A DNA stretch of 64,000 nucleotides, taken from positions 7,564,001 to 7,628,000 of the forward strand of contig NC_135258.1 of assembly GCF_964204865.1 (NCBI RefSeq). Reading direction: 5' to 3'. Made by a program: the position numbers and the translations under genes. Shown piece by piece: positions 17,312 to 64,000 of this stretch. Under the pieces are notes generated by a model that saw nothing but the letters and a program-made list of their open reading frames with translations, made no database searches and was not told the origin of the DNA. The DNA comes from Styela clava. Its lineage: Eukaryota. Every line of letters begins with the position of its first letter. The first letter of the stretch is position 1.

Positions 17312-18319
17312 ATGGCAACCATTGTCAAAGATGTAACACTGAAGCAGGGCGCTTTAAAGGAATTGCTAATGACAAAGCATTCTACTTATTTAGCTGCTTA
17401 TGGATCAAAGAAAAATGATTATGAATACTGCATGACAGAGTATCTTCGACTAAGTGGGATATATTGGGGTTTAACCGCGATGGATCTGTTGGGACAAATT
17501 GAAGAAATGAATAAAGATGAAATTCTGTCCTATTTAAATTCTTGTAAGCATGATTGTGGTGGATATTCTCCTGCACCACAACACGACCCGAGTATTTTAT
17601 ATACTCTCAGTGCGATACAGATTGCATGTATTTATGATCGATTGGATGTTATAGATGTGGAAAAGACTGTGGAATATATTGAAAACCTTCAAAATGAAAA
17701 TGGGTCTTTCGCTGGTGATAAATGGGGTGAAATTGACACCCGTTTCTCATTTTGTGCAATTGCATCACTAGCATTACTCAGTAAGTTGAAAGAAGGTGAC
17801 AGCAAAGTTGATTTGGAAAAAGCTGTTGATTTTATTATTTCATGTATGAATTTCGATGGAGGTTTTGGGTGTCGGCCTGGATCAGAGTCGCATTCTGGAC
17901 AGATATATTGCTGTCTCGGTGCATTGTCAATTCTTGGTCAACTCCACAGAGTCGATGCAGATTTACTCGGTTGGTGGTTATGTGAACGACAGCTTCCATC
18001 TGGAGGCCTCAATGGCAGACCTGAAAAGCTACCTGATGTTTGTTATTCCTGGTGGGTTTTATCTTCACTTTCTATATTAGGAAAAGTTCATTGGATTGAC
18101 AGTAAAAAATTAATCAATTTTATTCTTGCGTCACAAGATGATGAAACTGGTGGAATTGCTGATAGACCTGGTGATATAGTTGACCCTTTTCATACTTTGT
18201 TCGGCATCACTGGTCTTTCACTTCTTGGTGACTCTAGATTGAAGAAAGTTAATCCTGTGTTTTGTATGCCACAGTATGTCATTGATAGAGTTGGTATACA
18301 GATACAAACTTTGAACTAA
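17312..18319 (+). CDS. RABGGTB: Geranylgeranyl transferase type-2 subunit beta, single-exon CDS
   Basis: 335 aa; [68 protein letters not shown]. Confidence 0.97.
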
Positions 18320-19394: not shown

Positions 19395-22300
19395 ATGGAA
19401 ACAGAGGTTGAAATATCTCCAAACGAAAAAGTTCTAGCCGAACAGTTGAAGGCAGTTTGTACACCCTTCGGTGATGAAAGGCGATCAAAACTAAAGGAAT
19501 CAACTGATATTTTGTTTGAAATGGGCAAGTTATATCTTGAAAAAGCAAAGTCATCTACAGGAATGAAACAAAAACTTGATTTTATAAAATGTTCTGCTTT
19601 ATTACACGGTGCTAAAGTTCGATATGAAAGAATATTATACGATATAAAAGGAGGAAATGAAGTTCACAAATTCCTCTTATCAATGGAGAAAGTGTTGTTG
19701 CAAGCTTGTGGAGGTAAACAGTGTGATATAACTCTCTCTGAATTATCCTCTCATATTTCAAAAACATTCAAGAATCTAAGAAAGGATGAAAAAGCTAAGT
19801 TACGTGAATTGGAACCACTTGATGAAGATCTTTCTGAAGATGAAATTCTTGAAAAACAGTTGAATAAAATTGAAACTATCCAACACATGATGAAGGAAAA
19901 CACACAAAATTATATTGATTTAATGAAATGCATTGCTTATTATTGTATGAAGATTCTAGGAGATTGTCCATGTTCGTTTGCTCTCGTTGGTTTGGGATCT
20001 TTGGCTCGGGAAGAAATAACTTTATATTCTGATTTTGAACACATAATAATTCTTGAAGAGGGTATCGATGATTCTCCAAATTATCATGAAGTGAAAGAAT
20101 ATTTTAGATGGTTTGCTGTGATATTTGAGATTATTATGATTGGTTTGGGTGAGACTATAATCAGAAGTGTTGGCGTGAAAAGTATAAATGACCTTTATTC
20201 TGAGGATAAGTCTAAAAATTGGTATTACGACAGTTTTACTACTAGTGGTGTATCTTTTGATGGAATGGTTCCCCATGCATGTAGTACACCTCTGGGTAGA
20301 CAAGAACCAACAAAAAATCGTAAGCACAAAGTTGAACTGATTCAACCTGTCAGTAAAATGGCTTCGTATCTAACATCGGATGAAGAAATCAAAAATGGTT
20401 ACTATTTGAAAGAAATGCTCATAAGAACTTGCTTCGTTGGGGGAAATAGGGAGTTATATGATGAATTTCAAAGTCATAAAATAGCAATTCTTAATAAGGA
20501 GATAAAGTATGATGTTTCAAAAAACATTGAAAGACAAATAACCAGAAACGTAAACTTGATAGTTACAGGAAGGATTGTTACAAATATTGCTCGCAAAATT
20601 GATGTGAAAAACTTGTTTTATAGACCAATCACTGCGCTTATTAGTTATTGGGCTCGCCTTCTTGAGGTTCTAAATAATTTTTATCTGACAACATCATCCA
20701 GCTTTCTTATTTCTGAGATGATGTGTAATTTTCCTCTTACATATGCGCTTGCAGTTGCTCATGAACTGCGCTTGAAAATATATGCAAAATCGGGATGTCG
20801 TTGGTTCAAAATTTATACGGAGGAAATATTTGAATATGTCAGTAAAAATTGTGCTACACATTGCCTCACACAAATATTTGTTCTTAGCGATAATCTTCAT
20901 GAAAAGGCCAGAGAGGCCATGCTTATAGATAAACCTTCATTTGAAAATCGGCCTAAAACAATATCTGATGGAAAAACTTTGGCCCAGATGCAATTAGCAC
21001 GTTTTGAAGATGCCATTCCTAAACTTCGGGAAGAAGCAAGTTTAGAAAAAGATTTATTGAGTGCTAAACCTTCTACTGATAATGAAATCGGGATATACGA
21101 TCTGAGGGTGATTGAAGCCACATTGATGGCAGCTAGACAAACCAATAAATTACCTCCAACAGAGTGGATCAACCATACAGAGATTTATTTGAAAGAAATT
21201 ATTGAAGATGGTACAGAACATCCAGCTAGGATTTCGTTTGCAATGAACTTGCTGGACATTGTGTATATATTTCAAGTTAATCCTAAAGAATCAATTGAAT
21301 TAAATAATCATCAATTTGAAAGATTTATTGGTCATGCGGGGACCCAATTTCTGATGCAAATTCGTTTCACCCAAGTAATGCAAATGACGATTTGCATGAG
21401 TCCTGCAGAAATGTTAGAGTATTGTATGGAAGGGATGAAAAAAAACAATGACATATGCTCACTCTATGGCTTTAAACTTGGAATAGCTTTTGCAGAAATA
21501 GAGATGGGAAACAAAGTTGAAGGTGCCGACAAGTTGCTTTCTTTGGTAAAAGATCTTTTTGAATGCAAGTGTCGTATGTTCGGGAAATTACTTACCTTAG
21601 AAATTGTGGCGTATATATTTGAATTTCAGATGGTACAAAACTTATTAGAGGATGCATATCAGACTTTGGAATTAGCAAATATCATTGAAGAATCTCAAAT
21701 TGAAATTGTTAACTTGGAAGCTGTGAGTGAAGGTATTTTATCAAGTGGACTGGTTGGAATGTGTTATGTGGAAAGAGGCATTGAAGAACAAGACATTAGT
21801 AAGGAGAAGGAACTTCTTTTAAAAGGCATAAGTTTCTGCCGGTCACCTCCTACAAGAGAAAGATTGAAGAAATCTACCAAGCACTATTATGAATTGGGCA
21901 TCAAGTCATATATACGTACATGTTTGGTTTCTACGGAATTGCAAGACGTACCAAATATTTGTAGTCTTTACTCTGATGCTCTGACCTCCTTGAAAAATGA
22001 CAGTTTCTTTCGTTCATATTTTCTTATGGTTATCCCAAATTTACTTGCTATTTTTATTGCAGAAGAAAATCTGATGTTAGTCCTCTATTCAATATCATTT
22101 ACTATTGATCATTTACAGAGTTTGTTGTGTCACCCATTCGTGATTAGTGAGATGAAAAGTTTTTTGACCAAAATACTCAAAATTGTACTGTGGGAATCTG
22201 TGTTCTGCGATCCTGCTTTGACTGCTATAGTAATGCAAGCAGAATTGGATTCTAATTGTTTAGAAAGTTTGAACAATATTTTATCACATTATGAAGAAAA

Positions 22301-22739
22301 TTATTTCTTTGCATCAGTTGCTACTGTATGGAAAAGATTAATTAAGGGCTGCTTTTCAGCTAAAGATCTTCAACAGATTAATTTTTTTGTTGGACTCAAA
22401 CTCTTTATCTCCCTTGGACAACATTCTTGTGATTTTGTAACAAAAACTATAAAAGAATACTCTTTGATTGGTGACAATATGACCAGTAATTTGTATAACA
22501 AAGGTGTTCAACAATACATAGACAATGACTTCCAATCTGCTGCCCGTTATTTTTGGAAAATAGTCAACAATACCAAACATCGATCAACTACACAAGTACG
22601 TTCTATTGTAATGTTGTATCACTCGATTATCAAAAATCCATCCGGATTTGATCGTTGTGTCATCAAAGGTTATTTGAGTTTGACTCAATCTCATTTTTAC
22701 AAAGGAAGACAAAAGTATCATGTTGCTGGAATACGATAA
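19395..22739 (+). CDS. Nucleotidyltransferase (GlnD/GlnE/DUF294-like) + helical/TPR-like protein, paralogue A
   Basis: 1114-aa uninterrupted ORF; FALVGLGSLAREEITLYSDFEHIIIL; TPR-like LYNKGVQQYIDNDFQSAARYFWKIV near the C-terminus. Confidence 0.8.
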   Translation: METEVEISPNEKVLAEQLKAVCTPFGDERRSKLKESTDILFEMGKLYLEKAKSSTGMKQKLDFIKCSALLHGAKVRYERILYDIKGGNEVHKFLLSMEKVLLQACGGKQCDITLSELSSHISKTFKNLRKDEKAKLRELEPLDEDLSEDEILEKQLNKIETIQHMMKENTQNYIDLMKCIAYYCMKILGDCPCSFALVGLGSLAREEITLYSDFEHIIILEEGIDDSPNYHEVKEYFRWFAVIFEIIMIGLGETIIRSVGVKSINDLYSEDKSKNWYYDSFTTSGVSFDGMVPHACSTPLGRQEPTKNRKHKVELIQPVSKMASYLTSDEEIKNGYYLKEMLIRTCFVGGNRELYDEFQSHKIAILNKEIKYDVSKNIERQITRNVNLIVTGRIVTNIARKIDVKNLFYRPITALISYWARLLEVLNNFYLTTSSSFLISEMMCNFPLTYALAVAHELRLKIYAKSGCRWFKIYTEEIFEYVSKNCATHCLTQIFVLSDNLHEKAREAMLIDKPSFENRPKTISDGKTLAQMQLARFEDAIPKLREEASLEKDLLSAKPSTDNEIGIYDLRVIEATLMAARQTNKLPPTEWINHTEIYLKEIIEDGTEHPARISFAMNLLDIVYIFQVNPKESIELNNHQFERFIGHAGTQFLMQIRFTQVMQMTICMSPAEMLEYCMEGMKKNNDICSLYGFKLGIAFAEIEMGNKVEGADKLLSLVKDLFECKCRMFGKLLTLEIVAYIFEFQMVQNLLEDAYQTLELANIIEESQIEIVNLEAVSEGILSSGLVGMCYVERGIEEQDISKEKELLLKGISFCRSPPTRERLKKSTKHYYELGIKSYIRTCLVSTELQDVPNICSLYSDALTSLKNDSFFRSYFLMVIPNLLAIFIAEENLMLVLYSISFTIDHLQSLLCHPFVISEMKSFLTKILKIVLWESVFCDPALTAIVMQAELDSNCLESLNNILSHYEENYFFASVATVWKRLIKGCFSAKDLQQINFFVGLKLFISLGQHSCDFVTKTIKEYSLIGDNMTSNLYNKGVQQYIDNDFQSAARYFWKIVNNTKHRSTTQVRSIVMLYHSIIKNPSGFDRCVIKGYLSLTQSHFYKGRQKYHVAGIR

Positions 22740-23177
22740 CTTGGAGACGCATTATTATTTGATGATATACATGTGCAGATATTGGTTTACAAACTGTGTA
22801 ATTAGAATTTTTGTGGATTTTTTAATGTCTGATTAATGTGTGTTATGTCTGGTTACCCTGATAAACAATTGAAGCTTTTCAATTTTGCAGAAGTTTGGAT
22901 TAAATTGCACCAAAAGTCTGTGATTTGTTTATACAAATATGGCTCATTTTTTCGGTATGTTTGGTTCTATCCATGTTTTGCTGTTTGCTTTGCATTTAGT
23001 GCAACAAGTCTTCAAACCATTTTGTGTTTTATTTTCAATACACTGATTATGTTATAGCCTACATATTATATTCTTTATTTGAAATACTACATATTGTTAG
23101 ATAATTAGTAATTTATTTTTTGATTTTGATTTAGAAATTTCCTATTCTGTTAGATAATTTGTACCATTGTGAAATTA

Positions 23178-23630
23178 CCGTATATCCTTGCATATTAGCC
23201 GAGTTTAAAACTCAAAAAAGGGCTGGAAATGCAGAAATTTCCCATTATGCTTGGTCACTATCGTATGAAGACAATTAGGACACAATTTGCTTCTAGATTT
23301 TTTGCTGTGGTCGCCCAGGATATCTCGACTATGTTAAAATAGGTTATACAATAATAATTGTAAAATATTTTCAATCAAAAAATTCATTAAAACATTAAAT
23401 ATAATAATCAAAAAATGTTTGGAAGGTGGGTGCCAGGCTGTGTGGGCTTTGTTCGAGATTAATATAATCACTAAAAATGATATTCTGAAGGTAGTGAATT
23501 GCGATATTGAATATTAAATTCAAATTGAACATCTCTGGCTTTGATATGGCATTATACGATTTGTAGGGTCGGCTTATATGCGAATTTTCACAAATTTGCT
23601 GTCTAGGGCTGTTTAAGTGAGGATATACGG
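23178..23630. mobile_element. Tc1/mariner-pogo type MITE
   Basis: TA|CCGTATATCC...GGATATACGG|TA; absent from the paralogous position (~62240). Confidence 0.8.
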
Positions 23631-24044
23631 TACATTTACTTTTGCCTGATAGACATATACTAACTAATCTATTTAATGATATTCTGAATTCCAGTGGAAT
23701 TCAAAGTCTGTTGTTTTTCCATATTCTTCTCTTTAAATATGGAAGGACATGTTATAATTAGTGTGTATACTTGGCACACTACAGTGCGACAATCATACAT
23801 ATGACTGTGGGATGGCTATGTTTCTCTTAGCTGCCGCCCCTGGAGCTTCCATTTCATCATTTTTGTTGTTTTCTTGGTGGATAACTGTGGAATATATTCT
23901 GTTAAGTGCACTTTTTCTAATGAACATTTTAGCTATGCTTATGAAAGATTTTCTCTGATGTCCTGGAGAAATACAGTATGCTGTTCTATATATTCTTCAC
24001 TGTAAATATGGAAAATCATTTTTTATTGAAGAGTACCTGTATGT

Positions 24045-25969
24045 ATAATTGCCAATATTTTCGAGCTTACTTTTCATTTATATATGTCTTAGCGCAACAA
24101 GTGTTAAACACAATTTCCAGTTTGAATAATTGCCAATATTTTGCAGCTTGCTTTTCATTTAAATATGTCTTAGCGCAACAAGTGTTTAACACAATTTCCA
24201 GTTTGAATAATTGCCAATATTTTCGAGCTTTTCATTTAAATATGTTTTAGCGCAACAAGTGTTTAACACAATTTCCAGTTTGAATAATTGCCAATATTTT
24301 CGAGCTTGCTTTTCATTTAAATATGTTTTAGCGCTACAAGTGTTTAACACAATTTCCAGTTTGAATAATTGCCAATATTTTGCAGCTTGCTTTTCATTTA
24401 AATATGTCTTAGCGCAACAAGTGTTTAACACAATTTCCAGTTTGAATAATTGCCAATATTTTCGAGCTTGCTTTTAATTTAAATATGTTTTAGCGCAACA
24501 AGTGTTTAACACAATTTCCAGTTTGAATAATTGCCAATATTCTCGAGCTTACTTTTCATTTAAATATGTTTTAGCGCAACAAGTGTTTAACACAATTTCC
24601 AGTTTGAATAATTGCCAATATTTTGCAGCTTGCTTTTCATTTAAATATGTCTTAGCGCAACAAGTGTTTAACACAATTTCCAGTTTGAATAATTGCCAAT
24701 ATTTTCGAGCTTGCTTTTCATTTAAATATGTTTTAGCGCTACAAGTGTTTAACACAATTTCCAGTTTGAATAATTGCCAATATTCTCGAGCTTATATTTC
24801 ATTTAAATATGTTTTAGCGCTACAAGTGTTTAACACAATTTCCAGTTTGAATAATTGCCAATATTTTCGAGCTTGCTCTTCATTTAGATATGTTGTACAA
24901 CAAGTGTTTAACACAATTTCCAGTTTGAATAATTGCCAATATTTTGCAGCTTGCTTTTCATTTAAATATGTTTTAGCGCAACAAGTGTTTAACACAATTT
25001 CCAGTTTGAATAATTGCCAATATTTTGCAGCTTACTTTTCATTTAAATATGTTTTAGCGCAACAAGTGTTTAACACAATTTCCAGTTTGAATAATTGCCA
25101 ATATTTTCGAGCTTGCTTTTCATTTAAATATGTTTTAGCGCTACAAGTGTTTAACACAATTTCCAGTTTGAATAATTGCCAATATTCTCGAGCTTACTTT
25201 TCATTTAAATATGTTTTAGCGCTACAAGTGTTTAACACAATTTCCAGTTTGAATAATTGCCAATATTTTGCAGCTTGCTTTTCATTTAAATATGTCTTAG
25301 CGCAACAAGTGTTTAACACAATTTCCAGTTTGAATAATTGCCAATATTTTCGAGCTTGCTTTTAATTTAAATATGTTTTAGCGCAACAAGTGTTTAACAC
25401 AATTTCCAGTTTGAATAATTGCCAATATTCTCGAGCTTACTTTTCATTTAAATATGTTTTAGCGCAACAAGTGTTTAACACAATTTCCAGTTTGAATAAT
25501 TGCCAATATTTTGCAGCTTGCTTTTCATTTAAATATGTCTTAGCGCAACAAGTGTTTAACACAATTTCCAGTTTGAATAATTGCCAATATTTTCGAGCTT
25601 GCTTTTCATTTAAATATGTTTTAGCGCTACAAGTGTTTAACACAATTTCCAGTTTGAATAATTGCCAATATTCTCGAGCTTACTTTTCATTTAAATATGT
25701 TTTAGCGCTACAAGTGTTTAACACAATTTCCAGTTTGAATAATTGCCAATATTTTCGAGCTTGCTCTTCATTTAGATATGTTGTACAACAAGTGTTTAAC
25801 ACAATTTCCAGTTTGAATAATTGCCAATATTTTGCAGCTTGCTTTTCATTTAAATATGTTTTAGCGCTACAAGTGTTTAACACAATTTCCAGTTTGTATA
25901 ATTGCCAATATTTTCGAGCTTGCTCTTCATTTAGATATGTTGTACAACAAGTGTTTAACACAATTTCCA
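24045..25969. repeat. Minisatellite, 24 copies of an 81-bp unit (77- and 78-bp variants)
   Basis: Unit ATAATTGCCAATATTTTCGAGCTTGCTTTTCATTTAAATATGTTTTAGCGCAACAAGTGTTTAACACAATTTCCAGTTTGA; unit starts at 24045, 24126, 24207, 24284 ... 25898. Confidence 0.97.
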
Positions 25970-26376
25970 CTAAAGTGGTAAAAACTTGTACTAAAATAAA
26001 ACCTGTGTCTCGTCACAGCCCAATAACCCTACAGAAAAGGCCATTACTCCGCTTATCACTATTTTCAATCTATTTCACATGATTATGGAATGTTTTATGC
26101 TATTTCCTAATCTCTGATCTATTTTAGGTGACTATGGAATGTTTTATTCTATTGATGTTGATATGCAAAAGTTTCATATAATGTGTCATATGTATTTACC
26201 ACTTTTTTTATTTCCATATGTTAGTATTTTGCCAATTCATTGCTACAGAAGAGAATATATAATAATAAGAGTAATTATCACCTAATTTGCATTTTACGTT
26301 AATTTTTTTCTCAAGGTGTACCAATAGTATTTCTTATGTAAAATATACGAGTTACTAAATAACGATTAGTTTGAAA

Positions 26377-29300
26377 ATGGAAACAGAAGATGAAATATCT
26401 CAAAAAGAGAAAGATTTAGCCGAACAGTTGAAGGCAGTTTGTACACCCTTCGGTGATGAAAGGCGATCAAAACTAAAGGAATCAACTGATATTTTGTTTG
26501 AAATTGGCAAGTTATATCTTGAAAAAGCAAAGTCATCAACAGAAATGAAACAAAAACTTGATTTTATAAAATGTTCTGCTTTATTACACGGTGCCAGAGT
26601 TCGATATGAAAGAATATTATATGATATAAAAGGAAAGAAGAAGGTTCATGAGCTCTTGGTTTCTTTGGATGAAATTTTATTTGTAGCTTGCAAAGGAAAT
26701 AAGTGTGATAAGAGTCTGTTTGAAATTTCTTCTGTTGTTGCTGGAAAATTTAAATATTTGAGAGAAGCTGAAAAGCAAGATTTAAACAGTTTGAGAATCA
26801 TTGATGAAAATCTTCCAGAGAATGAATGTCACCAACAACAATTAATTAAAATTGACGTGATAAAAGATTTAATGAAAAAGAACACAAAGAATTATATAAG
26901 TTTGATGAATTATATCGCTGAATATTGCCTACGGATACTTGGCAATTCTCTCTGTCCTTTTGCTATAGTCGGTTTGGGATCTTTAGCTCGCGAGGAAATA
27001 ACTTTATATTCTGATTTTGAACATGTAATAATTCTTGAAGACGGTATTGATGATTCTCCAAATTATGATGAAGTGAAGGAATATTTCAGATGGTTTGCTG
27101 TGATATTTGAGATTATTATAATTGGTTTGGGGGAGACTATAATCAGAAGTGTTGGCGTGAAGAGTATCAACGATTTGTATTCAGAAGACAAAAGCAAAAA
27201 CTGGTTTTATGATATGTTCACACCAAGTGGTATTGCATTTGATGGTATGGTTCCTCATTCATGCAATACACCACTAGGTAGACAAGAACCAACAAAAAAT
27301 CACAAGCACAAAGTTGAACTGATTCAACCTGTCAGTAAAATGGCTTCATATTTAACATCGGATGAAGACATCAAAAATGGTTACTATTTGAAAGATGTAT
27401 TGTCTCGTACTTGTTTTGTATTTGGTAACGAAGAGTTGTATTTGAATTTTAAGGAAAAATCCAGACATATCTTAGATGGCCAACCAAAACAAGAAATTGC
27501 TACTGATATTCTTAAGCATGTAAGAGAGAATGTCAACCAAGGTGTTAAATCTAAAATTCGAACACATATCAGCGCATCATATGAATTAGATAGCAAAGTC
27601 AATTTTTACAGACCGTTTGCAGTGTTGTTGGGTTACTGGGCTCGATTTTTTAAGTTGAAAGAAGAATCCAGTTTTGAAATTATCGTAAAATCAAAATTCA
27701 ATGAGACGTATCATCATCCAACCATGTATGGCTTTGCTGTTGCTTGTGAAGCAAGATTGAAGCTTTACAGTCGTTGTGAGGGAAATCGAAAGTCATCAGA
27801 AAATATTCTAAATTATATCGGTAAAAATTGTGCCATCAATTGTATATCAATTATTTTGCATCTTGCAGATTCGATAGTGAATTTGGAAAAACGTTATATA
27901 AAAGGTGAATTACTGACCCATGTTTTTCCTGGACCTTCTCCATGTCCGGGTGCATTTGATGGCTCTTCACTGTCGCTTTTATCATTAGGTTTTCTTGAAG
28001 AAGCCCGGGTTAAATTTGAACTGGAGAAATCTTTGCTTGATGAAGATCCATGGAAAGATAGGTTTCCCTATGCTGGTGTACTTCTTCCACTTGCCATTAC
28101 GTACTACCAACTTCACGATAGGTCTGAGGATGTGAATTATTTCAGAAAGGCTGAAAAAGAGATTGAGTGTTTATTAGCAATAGATGAAGATAGTTCAGAA
28201 TCTTTCCTCATTTGTACCATGTTACTGGAAATATATTTTGATTCTGAACGTTATGAAGAAGTTCTAACTCTTGTGGAAAAGTGGTTTAAAAAGGATACTG
28301 TAAAAGATAAAGGCATCACTTTCTATTTACGATTGAGGCAATTCTCAGCTATGGGATTATTAAAAAAGCCAAATGAAATGCTCAATTTTTGCTTGGGAGA
28401 AATTTCAAAGCATGAGGATGATGTTTCACAGTTGCTTTTTCAATTTGGTTCTGCTTTATTTTATATTGACTTGAAGAAAGACGTGCAAGGCAAAGATATA
28501 TTGAGCAAATTATCCGATTCTGTGATGCAAATGAGAGGTGTTCCCAAGGTGGCGGTATTGATTTTCATGTCGTTTGTTTTTAGGACTCAAATGAAGAATG
28601 ACTGGTGGGGAGATGCCTTTATGACATTAGAGAGGTCCAGAATAATACAGGAGTCGCAGATGCAATTGGTTGATGTCGCACATGCCGGTGGGGCTTTAGT
28701 ATGCCCTGATGCTGCCTTGTGCTATACTATAATAGCCAAACATTTTATGCCTGAAGCCAAAAGACCAGAAGTTCTAAACAGAGTGATCGAAATTTGCCGT
28801 CGTCCTGAAAATTTGGTAGTCTGCGTCAAGCATTACCAATATGCTCTCACCTTAATGTTGACTTTAGAGAGCCAAAACTTGGAAGTATTTGATATCAAAG
28901 CATTTAACACAGCATTATCAGAAGCACCGCATGTTGTTATAAGTGACATTACTTTACAAAGTACCGCTTTAAGAAAAGAACTTATTCTTCTTGATTATTA
29001 TCAAGAACAAATATCAAATGGAAAGATCATGGATATTTTTCCCTTGGTTATTTCATTTCTTCACACGTTTAATTTCAATCTTTCCCACCCTTTGCTATCT
29101 GTCAGTATAAATGCACTTTTCATTTCTCTCATAGATGCCTTGGCATTGTTGATATGTCCAGGCGATGGCCAACAAGTAATAAACAGCTTTAATGTTTGCT
29201 TTTGTGTTGAACGACTGCAAGTTTTTCAAATATTTTATGATACATTAATGCTGGAATTAAAACATGAATTAAACCACAGTTCAAATTTCTTTTGGAAAAA

Positions 29301-29667
29301 AGTGCGATCACACCTAACTGTCAATAAACAATACATTTATAAATTGTTGAATCTTGTTATCAAAGCTGTGTCTATTGATAAATGGGGCCAAACTCAAAAA
29401 ATGATAGAGGATTATGCTAATAGGATACTAATAACTGGTCCCAGTGACCCTATTGAATCTAAATACAATTTTGCTATTGCTAATTACCATGTATGCAATT
29501 TTCCTGTTGCTGCAAAATGCTTGTGGGAGGTTATTTGTCAGGTAAAAAAAGGTGACATTCTCCACATTAGAGCTATTGTAACTCTACTGTTTGCTGTAAT
29601 ATTGCACATGAGATCATTTGGCTATATGGTAGATTTTGGCCCAAAGTATATTTCATTGTGCCTGTAA
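26377..29667 (+). CDS. Nucleotidyltransferase + helical/TPR-like protein, paralogue B (divergent C-terminal two thirds)
   Basis: ATG at 26377; FAIVGLGSLAREEITLYSDFEHVIIL; C-terminal KYNFAIANYHVCNFPVAAKCLWEVI aligns with the TPR-like motif of A. Confidence 0.8.
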   Translation: METEDEISQKEKDLAEQLKAVCTPFGDERRSKLKESTDILFEIGKLYLEKAKSSTEMKQKLDFIKCSALLHGARVRYERILYDIKGKKKVHELLVSLDEILFVACKGNKCDKSLFEISSVVAGKFKYLREAEKQDLNSLRIIDENLPENECHQQQLIKIDVIKDLMKKNTKNYISLMNYIAEYCLRILGNSLCPFAIVGLGSLAREEITLYSDFEHVIILEDGIDDSPNYDEVKEYFRWFAVIFEIIIIGLGETIIRSVGVKSINDLYSEDKSKNWFYDMFTPSGIAFDGMVPHSCNTPLGRQEPTKNHKHKVELIQPVSKMASYLTSDEDIKNGYYLKDVLSRTCFVFGNEELYLNFKEKSRHILDGQPKQEIATDILKHVRENVNQGVKSKIRTHISASYELDSKVNFYRPFAVLLGYWARFFKLKEESSFEIIVKSKFNETYHHPTMYGFAVACEARLKLYSRCEGNRKSSENILNYIGKNCAINCISIILHLADSIVNLEKRYIKGELLTHVFPGPSPCPGAFDGSSLSLLSLGFLEEARVKFELEKSLLDEDPWKDRFPYAGVLLPLAITYYQLHDRSEDVNYFRKAEKEIECLLAIDEDSSESFLICTMLLEIYFDSERYEEVLTLVEKWFKKDTVKDKGITFYLRLRQFSAMGLLKKPNEMLNFCLGEISKHEDDVSQLLFQFGSALFYIDLKKDVQGKDILSKLSDSVMQMRGVPKVAVLIFMSFVFRTQMKNDWWGDAFMTLERSRIIQESQMQLVDVAHAGGALVCPDAALCYTIIAKHFMPEAKRPEVLNRVIEICRRPENLVVCVKHYQYALTLMLTLESQNLEVFDIKAFNTALSEAPHVVISDITLQSTALRKELILLDYYQEQISNGKIMDIFPLVISFLHTFNFNLSHPLLSVSINALFISLIDALALLICPGDGQQVINSFNVCFCVERLQVFQIFYDTLMLELKHELNHSSNFFWKKVRSHLTVNKQYIYKLLNLVIKAVSIDKWGQTQKMIEDYANRILITGPSDPIESKYNFAIANYHVCNFPVAAKCLWEVICQVKKGDILHIRAIVTLLFAVILHMRSFGYMVDFGPKYISLCL

Positions 29668-29887: not shown

Positions 29888-31171
29888 ATGTCCCAACGTA
29901 ATTCGAATACGCCTTTGGACGTTAACAAACAACCAAAGAAACCTGCACCTCCGATCCCCACACCCAGGAATGCTTCATGTTCACCACTCTCAGGTAATGC
30001 AAATGGAATCACTGTCAGAAAGCAGAAAACGCCAAGACAAACAAAAAGTGAAGATGCAGCAAAGGTGATTAAAATGAATGGGGAAATTTTAAGATATCGA
30101 AAAAATCTTCAAGAAGGTTTTAAAAATTCAAATAATGTGAATGATAATTCACAACAAAAAGATGCTGATTTGATAAAAGTCGATGAAATTCAAACATTAA
30201 AAAAAGATTTGCAAGATTTATTAGAGAAGAATACTCAATGGCAAGTATACAATGAGCAAAGGGAAGATTATGTACGAAGTTTGCATGAAAAGTATAATAC
30301 TTTGCAACACCAATGTCATCATATGCATGAAAGAATTGCTTCATTAACAGACAATCCAAATCAGTTATCTGAGCAGCAACGAAAATATTATGATGGCCTG
30401 CTAGTGGAAGCACGGCAGCATCTTCAAGTGAGTCGTGACGAAGCGACACAATGGAAACAAGAGTTGGAAATAGCTAGCAAGAAATTTGAAGATGAAAAAC
30501 TCAAGCTAAGAAGGGAATTAGAACATTGGAGAGTCAAATATGATCGAGAAAGAAATGCAAATATGAGTTTACAAAAGGAAATGGAAAGACACAAAAAACA
30601 GAATTACGATAGTTACAACAAAGAAAACTTGGATGAAATATCAATACTGAAAATGGAAATGGGAAAATGTAGGGAAGACTTCAAACTAGAACGCCAGAGG
30701 AGAGAAGATATTGAAAGAAGATTAAATGGCCTTCAAAAGAAATTTAGAGATTCAGAAATTTCCTCCCAAAAGAAAAGATCTGATCATTTGATGGAGTATG
30801 AACGTGATAGAACATACATTCCTAATACATCTCATGATGCTGCACGAAATTGTCACGTTTCTCCACCTAAAGTTAAAAAAATTACAATCAGTCATGAAAA
30901 ATCGCAAAGTAGGATGCATAAAGAACGAAAATCTTATCCTGCAGAACCTTTACCATATTCTTCTAGACATGAGAGACCACACAAGGAAAGGTCAACGACA
31001 AAAAGGGAAGACAGAACCGGAAAATTGAAGCAAAATAAAAAATTAAATCAAACTTATAGTGAGTTTGGACATCATCATGCTGCTGAGGAATTAAAATGTC
31101 CGAATTGTGGGAAAGTATATGGGGTAGAGGAACATGAGTTTTTATTGATACACATTGATTCTTGTGTGTAG
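29888..31171 (+). CDS. CEP55/TNIP2-like coiled-coil protein (EABR-like, UBAN-like, C-terminal UBZ zinc finger)
   Basis: LLEKNTQWQVYNEQREDYVRSL (cf. CEP55 LEKNQQWLVYDQQREVYVKGL), CREDFKLER, CPNCGKVY..EEHEFLLIHIDSC. CEP55 versus TNIP2 orthology not resolved. Confidence 0.75.
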   Translation: MSQRNSNTPLDVNKQPKKPAPPIPTPRNASCSPLSGNANGITVRKQKTPRQTKSEDAAKVIKMNGEILRYRKNLQEGFKNSNNVNDNSQQKDADLIKVDEIQTLKKDLQDLLEKNTQWQVYNEQREDYVRSLHEKYNTLQHQCHHMHERIASLTDNPNQLSEQQRKYYDGLLVEARQHLQVSRDEATQWKQELEIASKKFEDEKLKLRRELEHWRVKYDRERNANMSLQKEMERHKKQNYDSYNKENLDEISILKMEMGKCREDFKLERQRREDIERRLNGLQKKFRDSEISSQKKRSDHLMEYERDRTYIPNTSHDAARNCHVSPPKVKKITISHEKSQSRMHKERKSYPAEPLPYSSRHERPHKERSTTKREDRTGKLKQNKKLNQTYSEFGHHHAAEELKCPNCGKVYGVEEHEFLLIHIDSCV

Positions 31172-32285: not shown

Positions 32286-34452
32286 ATGGACGACGTTGGG
32301 CATAAAAAACGAAGGCACGATACACATTATGGGTCTTCTGATTACCATCCTCGTTACAAGAAACACAACATGGGAAACCAAAGGGATGATTGGAGATCAG
32401 GTTTGTGATATAATATAAGGACTTCAAATTGAATTTACGAAGCAAACTCAAAATCTATTGGAACTCAAAAGAATTAATCTGGACAATATGGGCTTAGTAA
32501 ATTTGAAGTGCCTAATATTTGTTTGCTGACCTTTGATCCAGGAAACGGATATCAGTATTCTCCACAGTTGATTTTGAACTAAAATCTTTCAATTAAAATA
32601 AGTTCATTTCTTTTCACTTGGCACCATTGTAAATTTTACAGGTCAAAATTTTCGTGACAAAGATCGCTACAATGAACGACAAGAAAGAAATCGTGGTGGG
32701 AATAACCAGTACAGAGATAATTCCGATTCAATATGGGATGTTGAGGTTTGCTTTGAGTATTCATCTATGTATTATTATTGGTTTATTACAATGTATATGT
32801 CATAGCTGAATTGGTGTGTTTTTTTAATATCGGTTTCATGATTCTCAGATGATGGATTCTAAAATGTTCTTGACAATTCAAAATGCAGTATTTCATATAA
32901 ATTTTCACTTAAAAAACTCAGAAATAACAATAATTATACATAAAATTTAAAATTGAATGAAATGACTTTATATATTTTCAGATCAATCTTATTGGGCAGA
33001 AAGATCCTAATCCAATGATACATCTCTGTGATACATGCAGACTGCCCATAAGAAGTTATGGACGATTGGTAAGGATATCGCCCTTGTTATATGAATTGAC
33101 CAGCGGATTTGTAACTTAATATGGAGAGTTATAGGAGATATGAAAATGTGGATAGGGTATTTTGAACCTTGCTTTGGTATTAATTGAATCGGAAAACTAG
33201 TCCTGAACTGGTAATTCGACATGATATCATGGTTTATCATATAATTAGGCCTTTATGTTGGATATTTTCCAGTAAAGTACTTCTGTAAATTAGTTGGTGC
33301 TTCATAGAAATGGAGTTTTCCAAACCTCAATTCACCACCATTATTCTTTATATAACCATTATTTTTAGATTCCTTGCAAACATGTTTTCTGCTTCAAATG
33401 TGCAAAAAAGACAGACAAGAATTGTCCAAGGTGGGTTAGATGTTTGAACATTTGTTGTAATAGCACCATTAAGCCCAGATGGATTCATTTTTAAAAAGAA
33501 TGGTTGCAATTCTGTGCTTGCTAACTATTCTATACTATTTTTAACGATCAGTAACAATGCATCAGATCGTTTTTTGCGAGTGGCAAGATTGGTGGAGCTA
33601 CCTGATCGGTTCGCTAACACATATTTGCTAATTACCAGTTACCGCTATTAATTTTTTCCATCCTTCTGAGCACGAAGTGGACCTGGGATTCTAATTGCAA
33701 AATTCTGTTCGCTGTTATGATTTTTGTTGCTGGATAATATTGCTGTTGTCTGCAACTAACTTCAATGTGCCTGAAAAAGATGGAAGATGTCGCAAGAAGA
33801 TTTACTTATTTTATCTTCACTAATTTAACAGTTTTATAGGTCCGTATATTTCAACCACTATTGAACCATTTATTTTCATTATAGATGTGGAGATGAAGTT
33901 CATCGTATTGAACAATGTCGTCATGGCACAGTTTGGATGTGTGGTGTTTCAAACTGCAGCAGAACATACTTATCACAAAGAGATTTACAAGCTCACATAA
34001 ATCACCGCCATGACAAGCCGCCTCCTCCACCAACTTTACCTACTGTTCCTATGCCACCATTGACAGCAGGAGGGATACTGGTGCCACCTCCTCCAGTATC
34101 TACAATCCCGCTCCAAAACCTTCCGCCAGTTCCTTCCCCTTATGTCCTAATGCCGAATGTTTCTACAAATCAGCCCCCTCCATCAATTATTCCTCAGCCT
34201 GCCGATCAAACAATCCCATCATCTCAGCCTATGGACATGCTTACTCGTCCAAGCAGCAATCTAATAACAATTCAAATTCAGGATGATCAACAAAATATCA
34301 TCAATTACAATCAACCCCCTCCCCAAGCACAGCAGTCTGTAACATACACTTCAACAGCAAACCAACAACCCCCAGGATCGAACAGCCAAAACAATGCTCA
34401 ATGGCTGCCACCCCGTTCTAATAGATCACAAAATCATTCGTCTAATTACTAA
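32286..34452 (+). CDS. CBLL1: E3 ubiquitin ligase Hakai; exons 32286-32400, 32642-32745, 32982-33068, 33369-33430, 33885-34452
   Basis: Spliced translation with phase-compatible GT-AG introns gives [43 protein letters not shown]...[19 protein letters not shown] and a Pro-rich tail. Confidence 0.93.
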
Positions 34453-48135: not shown

Positions 48136-48367
48136 ACAAATGTGCGGCATACACCCCTTTTGATATATATAAATTATAATAGGGTAAATCAAATATGTAC
48201 AATATGGTCCTTTATACAGGCAGTTGTGCAAGGAGGGTGGGTGGGTGTGGTAACAGGGATAAGGGTGGAGTGTACAAAACTGTCTGTATAAAGGACCATA
48301 TTGTACATATTTGATTTACCCTATTATAATTTATATATATCAAAAGGGGTGTATGCCGCACATTTGT
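48136..48367. repeat. Perfect 84-bp inverted repeat with 64-bp spacer
   Basis: 48136-48219 is the exact reverse complement of 48284-48367. Confidence 0.95.
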
Positions 48368-61100: not shown

Positions 61101-61527
61101 TCTGCAACTGATCTTTTTCATCCTTTCTCAGATTCTTGAGTGTTTTTGAAATATGAGAGGATAATTCAGAGAGAGTTTTATCACACTGTTTACCTCCACA
61201 AGCTTGCAACAACACTTTCTCCATCGATAAAAGGAATTTGTGAACTTTATTTCTTCCTTTTATATCATATAATATTCTTCCATATCGAACTTTAGCACCG
61301 TGTAATAAAGCAGAACATTTTATAAAATCAAGTTTTTGTTTCATTCCTGTTGATGACTTTGCTTTTTCAAGATATAACTTGCCCATTTCAAACAAAATAT
61401 CAGTTGATTCCTTTAGTTTTGATCGCCTTTCATCACCAAATGGTGTACATACTGCCTTCAACTGTTCAGTCAAATCTTTTTCTTTTTGAGATATTTCATC
61501 TTCTGTTTCCATATTCGAACCAATCAT
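58144..61527 (-). CDS. Nucleotidyltransferase + helical/TPR-like protein, paralogue C
   Basis: 1127-aa ORF colinear with A; same GSLAREEITLYSDFE motif; the ATG homologous to A/B is at 61512. Confidence 0.8.
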   Translation of the reverse strand: MIGSNMETEDEISQKEKDLTEQLKAVCTPFGDERRSKLKESTDILFEMGKLYLEKAKSSTGMKQKLDFIKCSALLHGAKVRYGRILYDIKGRNKVHKFLLSMEKVLLQACGGKQCDKTLSELSSHISKTLKNLRKDEKDQLQKMEPFDEKLSKLEIMEKQLNKIETIQLMMEKNTQNYITLMTYIAEYCMKLLGDSPCSFALVGLGSLAREEITLYSDFEHVIILKDDIDDSPNYHEVKEYFRWFAVIFEIIMIGLGETIIRSVGVKSINDLYSEDKSKNWYYDNFTTSGVSFDGMVPHACSTPLGRQEPTKNRKHKVELIQPVSKMASYLTSDEDIKNGYYLKEMLIRTCFVWGNKELYDEFQRCKLAILEKESKYDVFKNIEKQIMENVNFTVTGRTVTNLACKTDVKNLFYRPITALISYWARFLEDTDGTDNNYLTTSSSFDLCDYLGNPIKYALAVAHELRLKIYAKSGCRRFKVYKEEIFEYVSKNCAIHCLRQTIVLVSNLLEEIRQVMPRDELSSSMFGKSQKTFTDGKTLAQMQLELYEDAIPRLEEEARLEKDLLNEKPFTDDKTAVFDMRVIEATMFAARQTHTRPSTEWMEHTEIYLKGIINDSSEHPAKILFAMDMLNILYVFQHKHRESIELNNQRFGRLLGHAGTQILMRIRFTQVMSMRISMNPVEMLEFCTEGMEKNNDICSLYGFELGIAFAEMKMGNKLKGATKLISSVKDLFECKCRMFGKLLTLEIMAYIFKYQMLYNLVEDAYQSLEIANIIEESQIEIVNLEAVIEDILSSGLVGMCYVEIGIEEQDISKKKELFLKGISFCKLPQTDRKLNKISKQYYEIGIIRYIFACLVRTDLQDIPNICSLYSDAPASLTNDSYIRSYLLMVTANFPDIFLAEENLMIVLYSMSITIDNSQSLLSHPFVISAMKNVFAQVLKMALSKSVFLDPALTGIVYQGKQLNSDYLASLNNIFSHYEASHFSASVATVWKRLIKGCFSAKDLHQIIFFVGLKLFISLGQRSCDFVTKTMKEYSLIGDNMISNLYNKGVQQYIDNDFQSAAHYFWKLVNNTKHRSTTQIRSIVMLYYSIIKNPFGFNPCVIEGYIGLTQYSCHEGRQKLGDAFPMKP

Positions 61528-62344
61528 TATTTACTTACGTATACATTTCATATAAGAAATACTATTGGTGTACCTTATAAAAAATAAAACGCTAATTAGG
61601 TGAGAATTACTCCTTATAATCTATATATATACACTTTTATATCAAGGGATTGGCGAAATCAAAAAAAATGGAAATCAAAAAACAGTATTAAATATATATT
61701 ACACAATATATAAAACTTCTGCATATCAACATCAATTAAATAAAACTTCCCAGTTCCCATAGTTACTTAAAATAGATTAGGAATAGTCATAAGTAAAGTA
61801 CTGGCCTTTACTGTCGGGTTATTGGGCTGTGATGAAGATGGCAGGTTTGATTTTATCTATTGGAAAGTTTGTTAAAAACGCGCTACAACATAGTTAAATG
61901 CAAAGCAAGTTCCAAAATATTGGCAATTATACCCTCCAATAAAAAATGTTATGTCACTCATATTTACAGTGAAGAATATATGAAACAGCATACTGTATTT
62001 TTACCAGGATATCAGAGATATCTTCAATTAAAAGGCATAGCTAGAATGTTCATTAGGAAAAAGTGCACTTGAAAGAATATATCACAGTTATCTGACAAGT
62101 AAAAAAAAAAAACACCACAATAGTGATCCATGTCGATTAATAAAAGAAGGTACCTACATCTATTGACACTGAGAATTCAGAAAATCATTCAAACGATTAG
62201 TTAGAATATGTTTATCAAGAAAAAGTACCGGTATATGTAAATATCACAGTGGTACAAATTACCTAACAGAATAGGAAAATTCCAAGTCAATCAATAAATA
62301 TACCATGTATCTGCTACATGTAGTATTTCAAATAAAGAATATAA

Positions 62345-62535
62345 TGATTCCATTACATTTGAACCCACGACAATTGCACTTGCATACTATTGCACCTATG
62401 GCAATTTTGTTTGTTTCACAGATATTATTTGTTTTACTGATATTTGAACCCATACTAACCCTAACCCATGGGTTTTAGCACCCGCATATAGATTGAACCC
62501 GCGGATATACACATGGGTTCAAATGTACGGTCACC
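62345..62535. mobile_element. Short TIR element with internal CTAACCCTAACCC
   Basis: TACATTTGAACCCA...TGGGTTCAAATGTA inverted repeat; flanking direct repeat AATATAA; absent at the paralogous site ~23060. Confidence 0.6.
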
Positions 62536-62636
62536 AATATAACATAATCAGTGGATTGAAAATAGAATACAAAATGATTTGAAGACTTGTTGCACTAAAT
62601 GCAAAGTAAACAGCAAAACATGGATAAAACCATATA

Positions 62637-63012
62637 CAGTAAATGCTCGTTTTAACGCCCGGTCTTGTTTAAGGGCCCGTTTGAATAGCCGCCCGTGTGA
62701 ACAGGACATGAAAATAAATAAGGGCCGGTGCTTGAATACCCGCCCGGTGTAAAAGTTTTTTTTTGTTTTTGCGGATTTGTACCTGCCGTGCAGAGAAAAA
62801 GTCAAAATTTTCATTATTCTCGTTTAAATCATACGTGAGAACTGGAAATTACAATATACGGTATTAATTAATGTAACGATCGATCTTATCTACCGGTATT
62901 TTTGTGTGTAATTTTACTTTAAAAATAACAAGCGCCCCTACTTGAATGAGGGCCCGGTTAGTGAGTATGTTTAAAAAAATAAGCGCCCGGGCTATTAAAC
63001 GAGCAAATACGA
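62637..63012. mobile_element. Tc1/pogo-type MITE
   Basis: TA|CAGTAAATGCTCGTTT...AAACGAGCAAATACGA|TA; empty site at the paralogous ~22958. Confidence 0.7.
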
Positions 63013-63234
63013 TATACCGAAAAAATAAGCTGCACCATATTTGTATGAACAAATCACAGATTTTGGTGCAATTTGATCCGAACTTATGCAAAATTGAAAA
63101 TCTTCGTTTATCACGGAAACCAGACATAACACATAGTAATAAAACATGTAAAACCCAACAAAAATTCCAATAACACAGTTTGTGAAGGCATATCTGCCCA
63201 TGTATATCATCAAATAAAATGCGTCTCCAAGTTA

Positions 63235-64000
63235 TCACATCCTAGCAATATAAAAGTTTTGTCTTCCTTTGTGGAAATGAGATTGAGTCAAACTTAAATA
63301 ACCTTTGATGACACAACGATCAAATCCGGAAGGATTTTTAATAATCGAATGATACAACATCACAATAGAACGTACTTGTGCAGTTGATCGATGTTTGGTA
63401 TTGTTGACTATTTTCCAAAAATAACGGGCAGCAGATTGGAAGTCATTGTCAATGTATTGTTGAACACCTTTGTTGTATAAATTACTGATCATATCGTCAC
63501 CAACCAAAGAGTATTTTTTTACAGTTTTTGATACAAAATCACAAGAACGTTGTCCAAGGGAGATTAGGAGCTTGAGTCCAACAAAAAATATAATCCGTTG
63601 AAGATCTTTAGATGAAAAGCAGCCCTTAATTAATCTTTTCCACACAGTAACAACTGATGCTGAGAAATGACTTGCTTCATAATGCGAGAAAATATTGTTC
63701 AAACTTGCTAAATAATCTGAATCCAACTGTTTTCCTTGATATACTATACCAGTTAAAGCAGGATCCAGGAATACAGACTTTGACAGCACCATTTTAAGTA
63801 CTTGAGCAAAAACATTTTTCATCGCACTAATCACAAATGGGTGAGACAACAAACTCTGTAAATTATCAATGGTAATTGATATTGAATAAAGAACTATCAT
63901 CAGATTTTCTTCTGCAAGAAAAAGATCATAAAAAGTGGAGGTGACTATAAGGAAATATGAACGAAAGAAACTGTCATTTTTCAAGGAGGGCGGGGCATCA
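63235..64000 (-). CDS. Nucleotidyltransferase/TPR-like family paralogue D, C-terminal part only (continues beyond the window)
   Basis: Frame is open to the right edge (DAPPSLKNDSFFRSY...) and colinear with the C-termini of A and C. Confidence 0.8.
   Translation of the reverse strand, partial: DAPPSLKNDSFFRSYFLIVTSTFYDLFLAEENLMIVLYSISITIDNLQSLLSHPFVISAMKNVFAQVLKMVLSKSVFLDPALTGIVYQGKQLDSDYLASLNNIFSHYEASHFSASVVTVWKRLIKGCFSSKDLQRIIFFVGLKLLISLGQRSCDFVSKTVKKYSLVGDDMISNLYNKGVQQYIDNDFQSAARYFWKIVNNTKHRSTAQVRSIVMLYHSIIKNPSGFDRCVIKGYLSLTQSHFHKGRQNFYIARM

Follow-up and report, generated by a model that had tools for sequence, protein, structure and literature searches.

Genes of the cluster and their predicted product

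The window analyzed here is a 64,000-nt stretch of the Styela clava genome (NC_135258.1, positions 7,564,001 to 7,628,000 of the forward strand) that contains gene B, its paralogues A and C and the end of D; a fifth paralogue, E, lies to its right. The features of the cluster are as follows.

19395..22739, + strand: gene A, 1114 aa, a member of the young A/C/D/E group and the tandem neighbor upstream of B
21502..21727, + strand: C-terminal tract of A common to E, with two 105-base identical runs
22740..26376, + strand: A-B spacer, to which the E-D and D-C spacers are collinear
24045..25969, no strand assigned: 81-bp tandem array of 23.9 copies inside the A-B spacer
26377..29667, + strand: gene B, an intronless ORF of 1096 aa
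58144..61512, - strand: gene C, with its ORF opening at 61527 and the start aligned with those of A and B at 61512
61513..63234, - strand: D-C spacer, the inverted homologue of the A-B spacer
63235..64000, - strand: 3' end of gene D, 1115 aa, which extends right of the window (L027:1239-4583)
L027:5712-9065, next after D, right of the window: gene E, 1118 aa

Gene B encodes a DrrA/GlnE-like nucleotidyltransferase module (about aa 1-510) followed by a TPR-like solenoid. It represents an old lineage, and no close paralogue of its C-terminal part was found, all paralogues being at most 30% identical there. Its 5' flank, the last 480 bases of the A-B spacer, is matched by C's flank at 71% over 490 columns and by D's at 77% over 231, and not by the flanks of A or E. 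Gene C, which is inverted relative to B, has an A/E-type body behind a B-type 5' flank, and its 3' flank matched none of the other cluster genes' flanks. Judged by these alignments, C and D are likely chimeras of a B-type 5' flank and an A/E-type body. The 81-bp array is an expansion of a unit that is present singly in the D-C spacer (61861-61930).

Long family members number 19 to 20 in the genome of S. clava, and named relatives come from Ciona, Clavelina and three Branchiostoma records; 352 cluster representatives were counted at E <= 1e-30. An endosymbiont relative, the 1295-aa protein L053 of Holosporaceae bacterium 'Namur', is 36% identical to B aa 128-325 and has the same motifs; in a prokaryote collection, one of 127 candidate stretches was confirmed as a relative. 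A literature search listed nothing that treats the animal family or describes conversion at the locus, although subscription papers and supplements could mention either. Among the matches listed, papers on DUF294 had titles on bacteria, Leishmania, Pfam or the HEPN survey, and a paper on tunicate HGT was free of all six terms looked for (PMC13390645). Interlocus conversion is a known process; the animal family is apparently undescribed.

The predicted structure of B's transferase module (pLDDT 90.3) consists of a transferase core and a C-terminal helical lobe. The four best Foldseek rows were all GlnE or DrrA (E 1e-6 to 1e-5), the best fold match being DrrA 6yx5 (Z 23.0, rmsd 3.9, 325 aligned, 14% identity), and the GlnE domains matched with Z 18.8 and 18.6. 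According to the accessible parts of two papers, AMPylases of the GS-ATase/DrrA type, which have a pol-beta fold, carry the motif G-X11-D/E-X-D/E (PMC8097203, PMC7815794). G201, S202, D213 and E215 were invariant across 118 aligned sequences, and the spacing of G201...D213-x-E215 in B equals that of G98...D110-x-D112 in DrrA. Candidates for the third metal-binding acid (D150 of DrrA, D753 of GlnE) are E253 (99%) and D279 and D289 (100%); a weak profile alignment to GlnE (5% probability) points to D279, and strand bridges at 214 and 288 of the model give a hint of D289. Matches to DUF294 (PF03445) exceeded the curated cut-off of 21 bits in A (25.6), B (26.0) and C (31.0), spanning only profile positions 16-91 of 138, and the SidM_N profile gave weak matches, below its cut-off, in C and relatives. 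The C-terminal 596 aa form an all-helical repeat with TPR-type solenoids as best fold matches; B itself has no Pfam TPR match, and such matches occur in relatives. No Rab GEF or P4M Pfam domain was found after the transferase domain. When solved structures were searched by sequence, B aa 1-508 gave four chance matches, none of them relevant, and the family profile gave only TPR proteins among the best 60 matches listed. On the strength of the modeled fold and motif, we rate it an even chance that the cluster proteins are protein AMPylases.

Three homogenized tracts in gene B

A two-state HMM comparing B with A, C, D and E gave the three tracts sharp edges; the segments of the gene are as follows.

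26377..26635, + strand: tract T1, aa 1-86, N-terminal helices
26636..26970, + strand: gap G1, aa 87-198, a long helical hairpin, currently unconverted
26971..27161, + strand: tract T2, aa 199-261, with the G201-S-L...D213-x-E215 motif and E253
27162..27276, + strand: island G2, aa 262-300, 115 bp between T2 and T3
27277..27395, + strand: tract T3, aa 301-339
27396..27900, + strand: unconverted helical lobe at the C-terminal end of the transferase module, about aa 340-508
27877..29664, + strand: aa 501-1096, a TPR-like alpha-solenoid with 22% identity to A

A further HMM segment of 19 bp (26801-26819) was treated as chance. T1 is 95-97% identical to A, C, D and E at the DNA level, the next-best place in the genome reaching 69-75%, and includes 88 bases identical to A (26417-26504). 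From 27068, T2 is identical to E for 52 bases and to C for 49, and T3 shows 3-5 differences from the four genes and 74 bases identical to E (27322-27395). Bases private to B number 2/259 in T1, 4/191 in T2 and 1/119 in T3. The first-pass annotation had reported three near-identical stretches between B and A, and our recount agreed (6/216 differences for B 26419-26634 against A 19437-19652, 16/201 for B ~26965-27165 and 5/119 for B 27277-27395), except that the first tract begins at the ATG, 26377, and not at 26419. Its description of the segments in between as barely alignable did not hold, as G1 and G2 are 46% (52/112) and 82% (32/39) identical to A as protein; after ~27400, where it had said the same, aa 340-500 are still 40% identical, the first indel falls near aa 394, and only after about aa 500 does identity drop to 22%.

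Silent divergence was far from uniform along the gene: dS between B and A/C/D/E was 0.06-0.23 in T1-T3 and at least 1.57 or saturated elsewhere. Among A, C, D and E themselves, tract dS was 0.00-0.30; the body of B is as distant from these genes as is the distant paralogue F, and T1-T3 lie within their diversity. Degenerate codons for the same amino acid differed at 13-17 of 171-174 positions inside the tracts and at 123-127 of 225-235 outside. A permutation test that needs no preset boundaries, scoring the longest stretch of identical synonymous codons over 20,000 shuffles, gave p <= 1.5e-4 for B against A, C, D and E in turn, versus p = 0.86 against F. GC at third positions did not rise inside the tracts. 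Against 14 distant paralogues the same three segments are saturated at silent sites, and a 14-residue peptide of G2 (aa 262-275) is the same in B and A with 11 of its 14 codons changed, which together argue for conversion rather than purifying selection, as had been proposed earlier.

T1-T3 are a patchwork in which the nearest neighbor changes from place to place. Variants of B are common to A only, to E only, or to D/E at adjacent sites; 23 of the 36 pairs among nine informative biallelic sites are incompatible, and six switch points occur in B within 1020 bases. Several donors imply many conversion events. A genome search found no outside donor for T1, identity above 75% being limited to the five cluster genes. 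Outside the cluster, high-identity matches between otherwise diverged paralogues were only 29-179 bases long and lay in the conserved core, and the paralogue pairs c19c/c19d (91%) and c5a/c5b (99.8%) are similar end to end. Exchange is confined neither to B nor to the enzyme half, contrary to the initial reading: D and E share identical runs of 213 and 115 bases in their C-terminal half, as A and E share the two runs of 105. The putative sensor half is distinct between B and A/C/D/E, as first suggested, and is itself exchanged among A, C, D and E. Nor is the enzyme module of B kept uniform, since only 569 of its about 1530 bases (37%) are homogenized and the segment with D279 and D289 is excluded. 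The label "recent" that had been given to the conversion is only partly apt, the tract dS being 0.06-0.23, with a few long identical runs (88 and 74 bases) in addition.

Separate trees favored different topologies for T2+T3 and for aa 340-1096. The T2+T3 DNA tree placed B with A/C/E (UFBoot 99) and rejected the C-terminal topology (AU p 0.009); the tree of aa 340-1096 placed F with A/C/E (UFBoot 93) and did not reject B+A/C/E (AU p 0.071). For G1, B+A/C/E was best and the alternative had p 0.052; for G2, B+A/C/E was not rejected (AU p 0.16); the T1 tree was star-like with weak support (UFBoot 59). These segment-wise AU tests used 9 of 20 family sequences, and the first trees 17 of 20 members, with c19d, c5b and c2 omitted as truncated or very distant. 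At the protein level, AU tests with 15 family members rejected neither main topology on T1, G1, G2 or T2+T3. No B orthologue of a sister species appeared among the best 120 of 383 matches or in runs X14-X16, of which X14 gave short near-identical pieces at low depth and X15 and X16 only motif matches of 35-65 bases.

The mosaic recurs in contigs from runs of independent studies and in another annotated allele, which argues that the tracts are not an assembly artefact, in answer to the concern about collapsed reads raised at the outset. Contigs of run X5 tile 26100-28100 with 0-4 differences each and cross the flank/T1, T1/G1, G1/T2 and G2/T3 edges; contigs of X6, X13 and X1 cross the T3/G3 edge from 27318. 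G2 was of B type in all four runs that had this piece (0, 0, 1 and 0 differences over 27132-27332). Hi-C run X17 yielded 12 reads only. The separately annotated B allele P0121 differs from the window's B at 27 residues, with the paralogue state at 3 of 3 differences in T1 versus 4 of 22 outside the tracts, and with no amino-acid difference in G2. Residue 38 is swapped: N38 in P0121 is the state of E, and the E-like P0002 has D38, so that across two annotations D38/N38 varies in B as well as in E-like proteins, a protein-level observation in which a polishing error is possible. P0121 also has T232/R234 at the start of the 49-52-base stretch over which the window's B equals C and E, suggestive of a conversion into B that is still polymorphic.

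The conserved island G2

G2 is a divergence peak of fixed differences with homogenized DNA on both sides: 32 of its 115 bases are private to B, versus 4/191 and 1/119 in T2 and T3 alongside. Its 5' edge holds 14 purely silent differences within 42 bases. A, C, D and E differ from one another here at only 2-4 of 120 positions. D279 (27211-27213), G285, D289 (27241-27243) and P299 are invariant, and the fixed differences between B and the others, P283/T, I286/V, A287/S, S295/A and N297/S, are mostly conservative and flank D289. Across 12 distant paralogues, G2 was the most conserved segment (aa 0.715, DNA 0.69), compared with 0.48 and 0.556 for T1. The longer hairpin G1 had dN of 0.37-0.39 to A-E versus 0.63-0.65 to F, which suggests an older round of exchange there.

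In a neutral toy simulation, G2 diverged with T2 and T3 still homogenized in 2 of 1594 runs, and in 0 of the 70 runs in which G1 and G3 had escaped too. The simulation covered nine parameter sets, in four of which G1 and G3 never escape; a few restarts of conversion after full divergence fall outside it. We consider that G2 was probably kept by selection against conversion. The tract dS is also compatible with a few older events, and G2 could be a chance gap if conversion had resumed just a few times once divergence was complete.

Origin of the mosaic and comparison with known systems

On the sequence evidence, the tracts very probably arose by interlocus gene conversion among the clustered paralogues. 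Three alternatives to this can be set beside it. Purifying selection on the protein or on silent sites, through RNA structure or a regulatory element, might hold the tracts alike, and T2 and T3 are indeed strongly conserved as protein; however, against F and every other distant paralogue the silent sites of T1-T3 have reached saturation, and G2, equally conserved as protein, is silent-saturated as well, so that we give this reading next to no credence. Nor do we credit collapsed paralogue reads, left as assembly or polishing artefacts, with any appreciable probability. Short-read contigs do break within tracts, none spans the whole gene, and the T2/G2 edge is overlapped by 30 bases only, one below the bridging rule, yet every tract has private B bases, B is identical to no single paralogue, the other edges are crossed by contigs of four runs, and the mosaic is repeated in the protein of the separately annotated allele. 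B might instead be a one-time chimera, formed when an old allele or paralogue underwent multiple crossovers with the A/C/D/E ancestor, with no continuing conversion. The overlap of tract dS between B and A/C/D/E with that within the group, and the star-like T1 tree, would be expected of such an origin, which is nevertheless very improbable given the six switch points, the adjacent variants of differing affinity, and two B alleles that differ in the tracts toward paralogue states.

The alternative that concerns G2 itself is neutral conversion, with tracts formed where identity allowed pairing and G2 a chance gap locked by mismatch density. There are only three tracts, the silent differences at the G2 edge would themselves stall heteroduplex extension, and the differences in G2 are conservative. 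Against this, prior identity predicts that G2 would be converted first and T1 last, the longer and less conserved G1 was apparently exchanged later than G2 (by dN and by the tree, p 0.052), such islands were rare in the neutral simulation, and multiple donors mean many events. We therefore hold neutral conversion to be unlikely, while giving it more weight than the three preceding alternatives. The reading that we prefer, repeated conversion of B with A, C, D and E in which selection spared a G2 predicted to set specificity, is assigned a probability of roughly 0.68 as a whole.

Under repeated conversion with a selected island, the ancestral locus would have been A-spacer-B, an inverted duplicate of which would yield E-spacer-B', and unequal crossovers within the homogenized T1 would have generated C and D. 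Tandem and inverted pairing over 7-45 kb could then provide four donors, and with four donors now, flow is probably mostly into B. Conversion would be tolerated wherever the two enzyme types interchange, and conversions that overwrite type-specific residues, in G2, G1, the C-terminal lobe and the solenoid, would be removed; segments so spared would diverge too far for pairing. The proteins are predicted to modify protein targets with AMP or another NMP, like DrrA and GlnE, with G2 at the active site and B differing from A/C/D/E in target or nucleotide preference.

In the accessible text of one review, the animal AMPylases named are Fic enzymes and SelO alone (PMC8097203). As a tentative and rather doubtful extension, the family might be an undescribed, lineage-expanded third class of animal AMPylase in ascidians and amphioxus, with a DrrA/GlnE fold and a TPR arm, probably derived from intracellular bacteria and serving in defence of the cell. 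The conversion-resistant parts, namely the D279/D289 island and a hairpin that by motif spacing matches the allosteric Rab-binding patch of DrrA, would set the target, and conversion together with promoter-swapping crossovers in the first 260 bases would reshuffle the rest. If active, the proteins would be a new class of writer enzyme for the cell biology of invertebrate chordates.

The N-terminal AMPylase domain of Legionella DrrA/SidM is the best match in fold and has the same G-S-L...D-x-D/E spacing (6yx5; PMC7815794, accessible part). Unlike DrrA, the family is chromosomal in an animal, its activity is a prediction, and a TPR-like solenoid takes the place of GEF and P4M. The AT and AR domains of E. 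coli GlnE match in fold, with a weak profile alignment of the motif region; unlike GlnE, B has a single transferase domain and an insertion before the putative third acid, and unlike GlnE and DUF294 proteins it lacks CBS or regulatory domains. In the available part of a HEPN survey, the GlnD/GlnE/DUF294_C family is counted as bacterial (PMC3710099). Neochlamydia NEX2, as far as the accessible text describes it, and 'Namur' L053 have the same domain order, transferase then TPRs; NEX2 usually carries an additional N-terminal F-box or OTU domain, which B does not (PMC4209131). The bacterial TPRs are canonical and those of B degenerate.

That clustered paralogues undergo patchy conversion is well known, and the pattern noted in the first-pass annotation would by itself be an ordinary case. 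Here, the sole unhomogenized core segment is also the family's most conserved, which yields a short list of candidate specificity residues. Frog ATP1A1 duplicates reportedly combine conversion with a divergence peak maintained by selection. Such peaks under conversion are described for the human red/green opsins and RHCE/RHD in the accessible part of Fawcett and Innan (2011, PMC3924837). As in the opsin and RH systems, the S. clava cluster has clustered paralogues, sharp-edged tracts, a flanked peak of fixed differences and hints of shared polymorphism. Unlike them, it has four donors, in tandem and inverted; most of gene B is saturated, with only 569 bases still common; and the peak is a 115-bp island, of predicted role only, within the best-conserved coding segment of a gene without introns.

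The mosaic of paralogue B

The window, C10:7564001-7628000, contains three full intronless paralogues (A, B and C); a fourth, D, has only its 3′ end inside, and the fifth, E, is located directly beyond the window edge. Three tracts of B delimited by HMM carried few bases private to B, and the 115 bases separating T2 from T3 (G2, 27162-27276) carried 32.

19395-22739, + strand: gene A, full intronless paralogue
26377-29667, + strand: gene B, full intronless paralogue
58144-61512, − strand: gene C, full intronless paralogue
26377-26635, + strand: tract T1 of B, 2 B-private bases
26971-27161, + strand: tract T2 of B, 4 B-private bases
27277-27395, + strand: tract T3 of B, 1 B-private base

The A-B differences counted in the first-pass annotation (6/216 and 5/119) were exact, and the middle tract differed at 16/201. 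The gaps had been described as barely alignable; in fact they were 46% and 82% identical to A, and the first indel occurred at ~aa 394. Values of dS between B and A/C/D/E were 0.06-0.23 in the tracts and at least 1.57, or saturated, in all other segments, while pS between B and F, the closest relative outside the cluster (same contig, 2.6 Mb off), was 0.62-0.80 across all seven segments. Codons for the same degenerate residue differed between B and the cluster at 13-17 of 171-174 positions in the tracts, 20-21 of 31-32 in G2 and 123-127 of 225-235 elsewhere (Fisher p of 2e-10 or less, an optimistic value because tract edges were chosen after inspection). An edge-free permutation test gave p ≤ 1.5e-4 for B against A/C/D/E and p = 0.86 for B against F.

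Purifying selection alone had been judged insufficient to preserve these silent sites, and we agree: the T1-T3 segments were silent-saturated against all 14 distant paralogues covering them, and the peptide at B aa 262-275 is that of A, yet 11 of its 14 codons differ. An assembly artefact was likewise rejected, since the mosaic was present in contigs of other studies and, identically at the protein level, in P0121, a separately annotated B allele. Contigs of sequencing run X5 tile 26100-28100 and span the flank/T1, T1/G1, G1/T2 and G2/T3 edges (G1, 26636-26970); the T2/G2 edge is not formally bridged because the contig overlap is only 30 bases. The edge beyond T3 was crossed by contigs of X6, X13 and X1. 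Runs X5, X6 and X13 come from three other studies; X1, possibly the source sample itself, is not independent.

B shared identical runs of 88 bases with A (in T1), 78 and 65 bases with D, and 52 (T2) and 74 bases (T3) with E. At nine informative biallelic tract sites, 23 of 36 pairs were incompatible. T1 DNA of >75% identity was found only in the five cluster genes. The T2+T3 DNA tree placed B with A/C/E (UFBoot 99; the alternative topology had an AU p of 0.009). For aa 340-1096, it was F that grouped with A/C/E (UFBoot 93; p 0.071 in the reverse test). The T1 tree was weakly supported, and protein-level tests on short segments were not significant. P0121 differed from B at 27 residues, with the paralogue state in 3/3 differences in T1 and 4/22 outside the tracts. 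Both T2 differences, T232 and R234, match no paralogue and are located at the start (27068) of B's run of C/E identity; they may represent an unconverted remnant, in which case conversion into B would still be polymorphic. The observation is largely confirmed; ectopic conversion stands as the interpretation, but a uniform enzyme module does not. Nor is exchange restricted to B or to the N-terminus and core, as had been claimed: in the solenoid half, D and E were identical over 213 and 115 bases, and A and E over 105 and 105.

Relatives, cluster history and neighbors

A search of the genome (377 Mb) with the B core gave 26 matches; 22 matching ORFs were obtained from 20 retrieved stretches plus the window, and 20 long ORFs were aligned. 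P0002, an E-like protein from another annotation, differed from E (L027:5712-9065) at 82 of ~825 residues; allele pairs of B (27/1096) and F (13/1114) differed far less. P0002 agrees with C at several sites in aa 741-819, and may reflect reshuffled haplotypes in the young group (A/C/D/E) or else another copy. A tandem pair on C5 (24.10-24.12 Mb; L037 and L038), 99.7-99.8% identical, with an early stop in one and a later start in the other, is either a very recent duplication or an assembly duplicate. Broken copies were seen in L045, L046 and L020/L026 (C10:21.6 Mb, C10:10.19 Mb, C19:5.227 Mb), that at C10:10.19 Mb being ~91-93% identical to F. In the remotest member (L044:1380-5528, − strand, 1383 aa) the D-x-E motif is gone; this protein may be a pseudo-enzyme.

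The A-B, E-D and D-C spacers were mutually collinear. Among 10 pairs of 500-base 5′ flanks, only B-C, B-D, C-D and A-E were alignable; 3′ flanks aligned only within A, D and E. On the simplest reading, an old A-spacer-B pair would have given rise to an inverted duplicate, E-spacer-B′; unequal crossovers in T1 would then have produced C and D, with a B flank and an A/E body, and B′ would have been lost or overwritten. B would therefore face four donors within 45 kb. Other features of the window were as follows.

1-14300 and 48000-53500: remnants of LTR retrotransposons and LINE-like elements (gag zinc knuckle, protease, RT, integrase)
17312-18319, + strand: prenyltransferase beta subunit gene, presumably Rab GGTase beta; single long intronless ORF, only full match in the genome
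24045-25969: 81-bp tandem array, 23.9 copies, ending ~400 bases ahead of the B start
29888-31171, + strand: CEP55-like gene (EABR), single long intronless ORF
33937-34452, + strand: Hakai-type zinc finger exon (PF18408), between B and C
41421-43859, − strand: Myb-domain gene, which we take to be DMTF1-like; single long intronless ORF

The array expanded from a unit present once upstream of C, and it incidentally creates ORFs 24502-25365 and 25390-26082. Several retroelement remains are in pieces with long repeats flanking them (RT at 49830-50513). The prenyltransferase, CEP55-like and Myb-domain genes are of housekeeping type. Gene A, whose best fold match modifies Rab proteins, begins 1.1 kb downstream of the Rab-prenylating subunit gene, probably by coincidence. 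Styela clava has fewer intronless genes than Ciona, according to an excerpt of the genome paper (PMC7540406).

Predicted transferase module and the unconverted island

For the model of B aa 1-520 (pLDDT 90.3), the best match was the AMPylase domain of Legionella DrrA (Z 23.0, 325 residues at rmsd 3.9), followed by the two GlnE domains (Z 18.8 and 18.6); the next unrelated entry scored 7.7. By fold and motif, the protein is predicted to be a GS-ATase/DrrA-like transferase. Candidate third acids are E253, D279 and D289, two of which are inside G2; D279 is favored by a weak GlnE profile alignment (5% probability), D289 tentatively by modeled strand bridges. The C-terminal 596 aa were modeled as a helical repeat (pLDDT 73.7) closest to TPR-type solenoids, with low TM-scores; Pfam TPR found no match in B itself, but matches many relatives. 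Named relatives occur in Ciona, Clavelina, Branchiostoma and one Holosporaceae endosymbiont; Branchiostoma P0124, P0125 and P0126 have at least three transferase-domain copies per chain, plus TPRs. Literature searches turned up no description of this family in animals or of the present locus.

Among 12 distant paralogues, G2 was the most conserved segment (identity 0.715 in aa, 0.69 in DNA), ahead of T2 (0.69/0.67), T3 (0.56/0.60) and T1 (0.48/0.56); in a wider set of 112 homologues, G2 ranked below T2 and T3. It was also the most uniform segment within A/C/D/E (2-4/120 differences), whereas B differed from them at 34-35/120. D279, G285, D289 and P299 are invariant, and five fixed B differences surround D289. 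We favor, with a probability of roughly 0.6, the reading that selection has kept G2 unconverted. That G2 is simply a gap left by chance is about half as likely. In a neutral toy simulation (2505 runs, nine parameter sets, late restart of conversion lying outside the model), G2 diverged in 2 of 1594 runs with T2 and T3 homogenized, and in 0 of 70 in which G1 and the region beyond T3 also escaped, four parameter sets yielding no such runs. G1, which is longer and less conserved, had a dN of 0.37-0.39 to A-E vs. 0.63-0.65 to F; exchange there seems, with moderate tree support, to have been later than in G2.

B is not a member of DrrA proper. Its G201-S-L...D213-x-E215 is spaced like G98...D110-x-D112 of DrrA, and by motif spacing the counterpart of the DrrA allosteric patch (R70, Q71, K74; excerpt of PMC7815794) would be B aa 173-177, in G1. 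Neochlamydia proteins combining DUF294 with TPRs are described in part of PMC4209131. A new class of animal AMPylases, with specificity residues marked by unconverted islands, is a tentative and rather doubtful proposal. Interlocus gene conversion that leaves a divergence peak is a process of a known kind, and G2 carries the same 'peak of divergence' signature known from opsins (PMC3924837, in extract).
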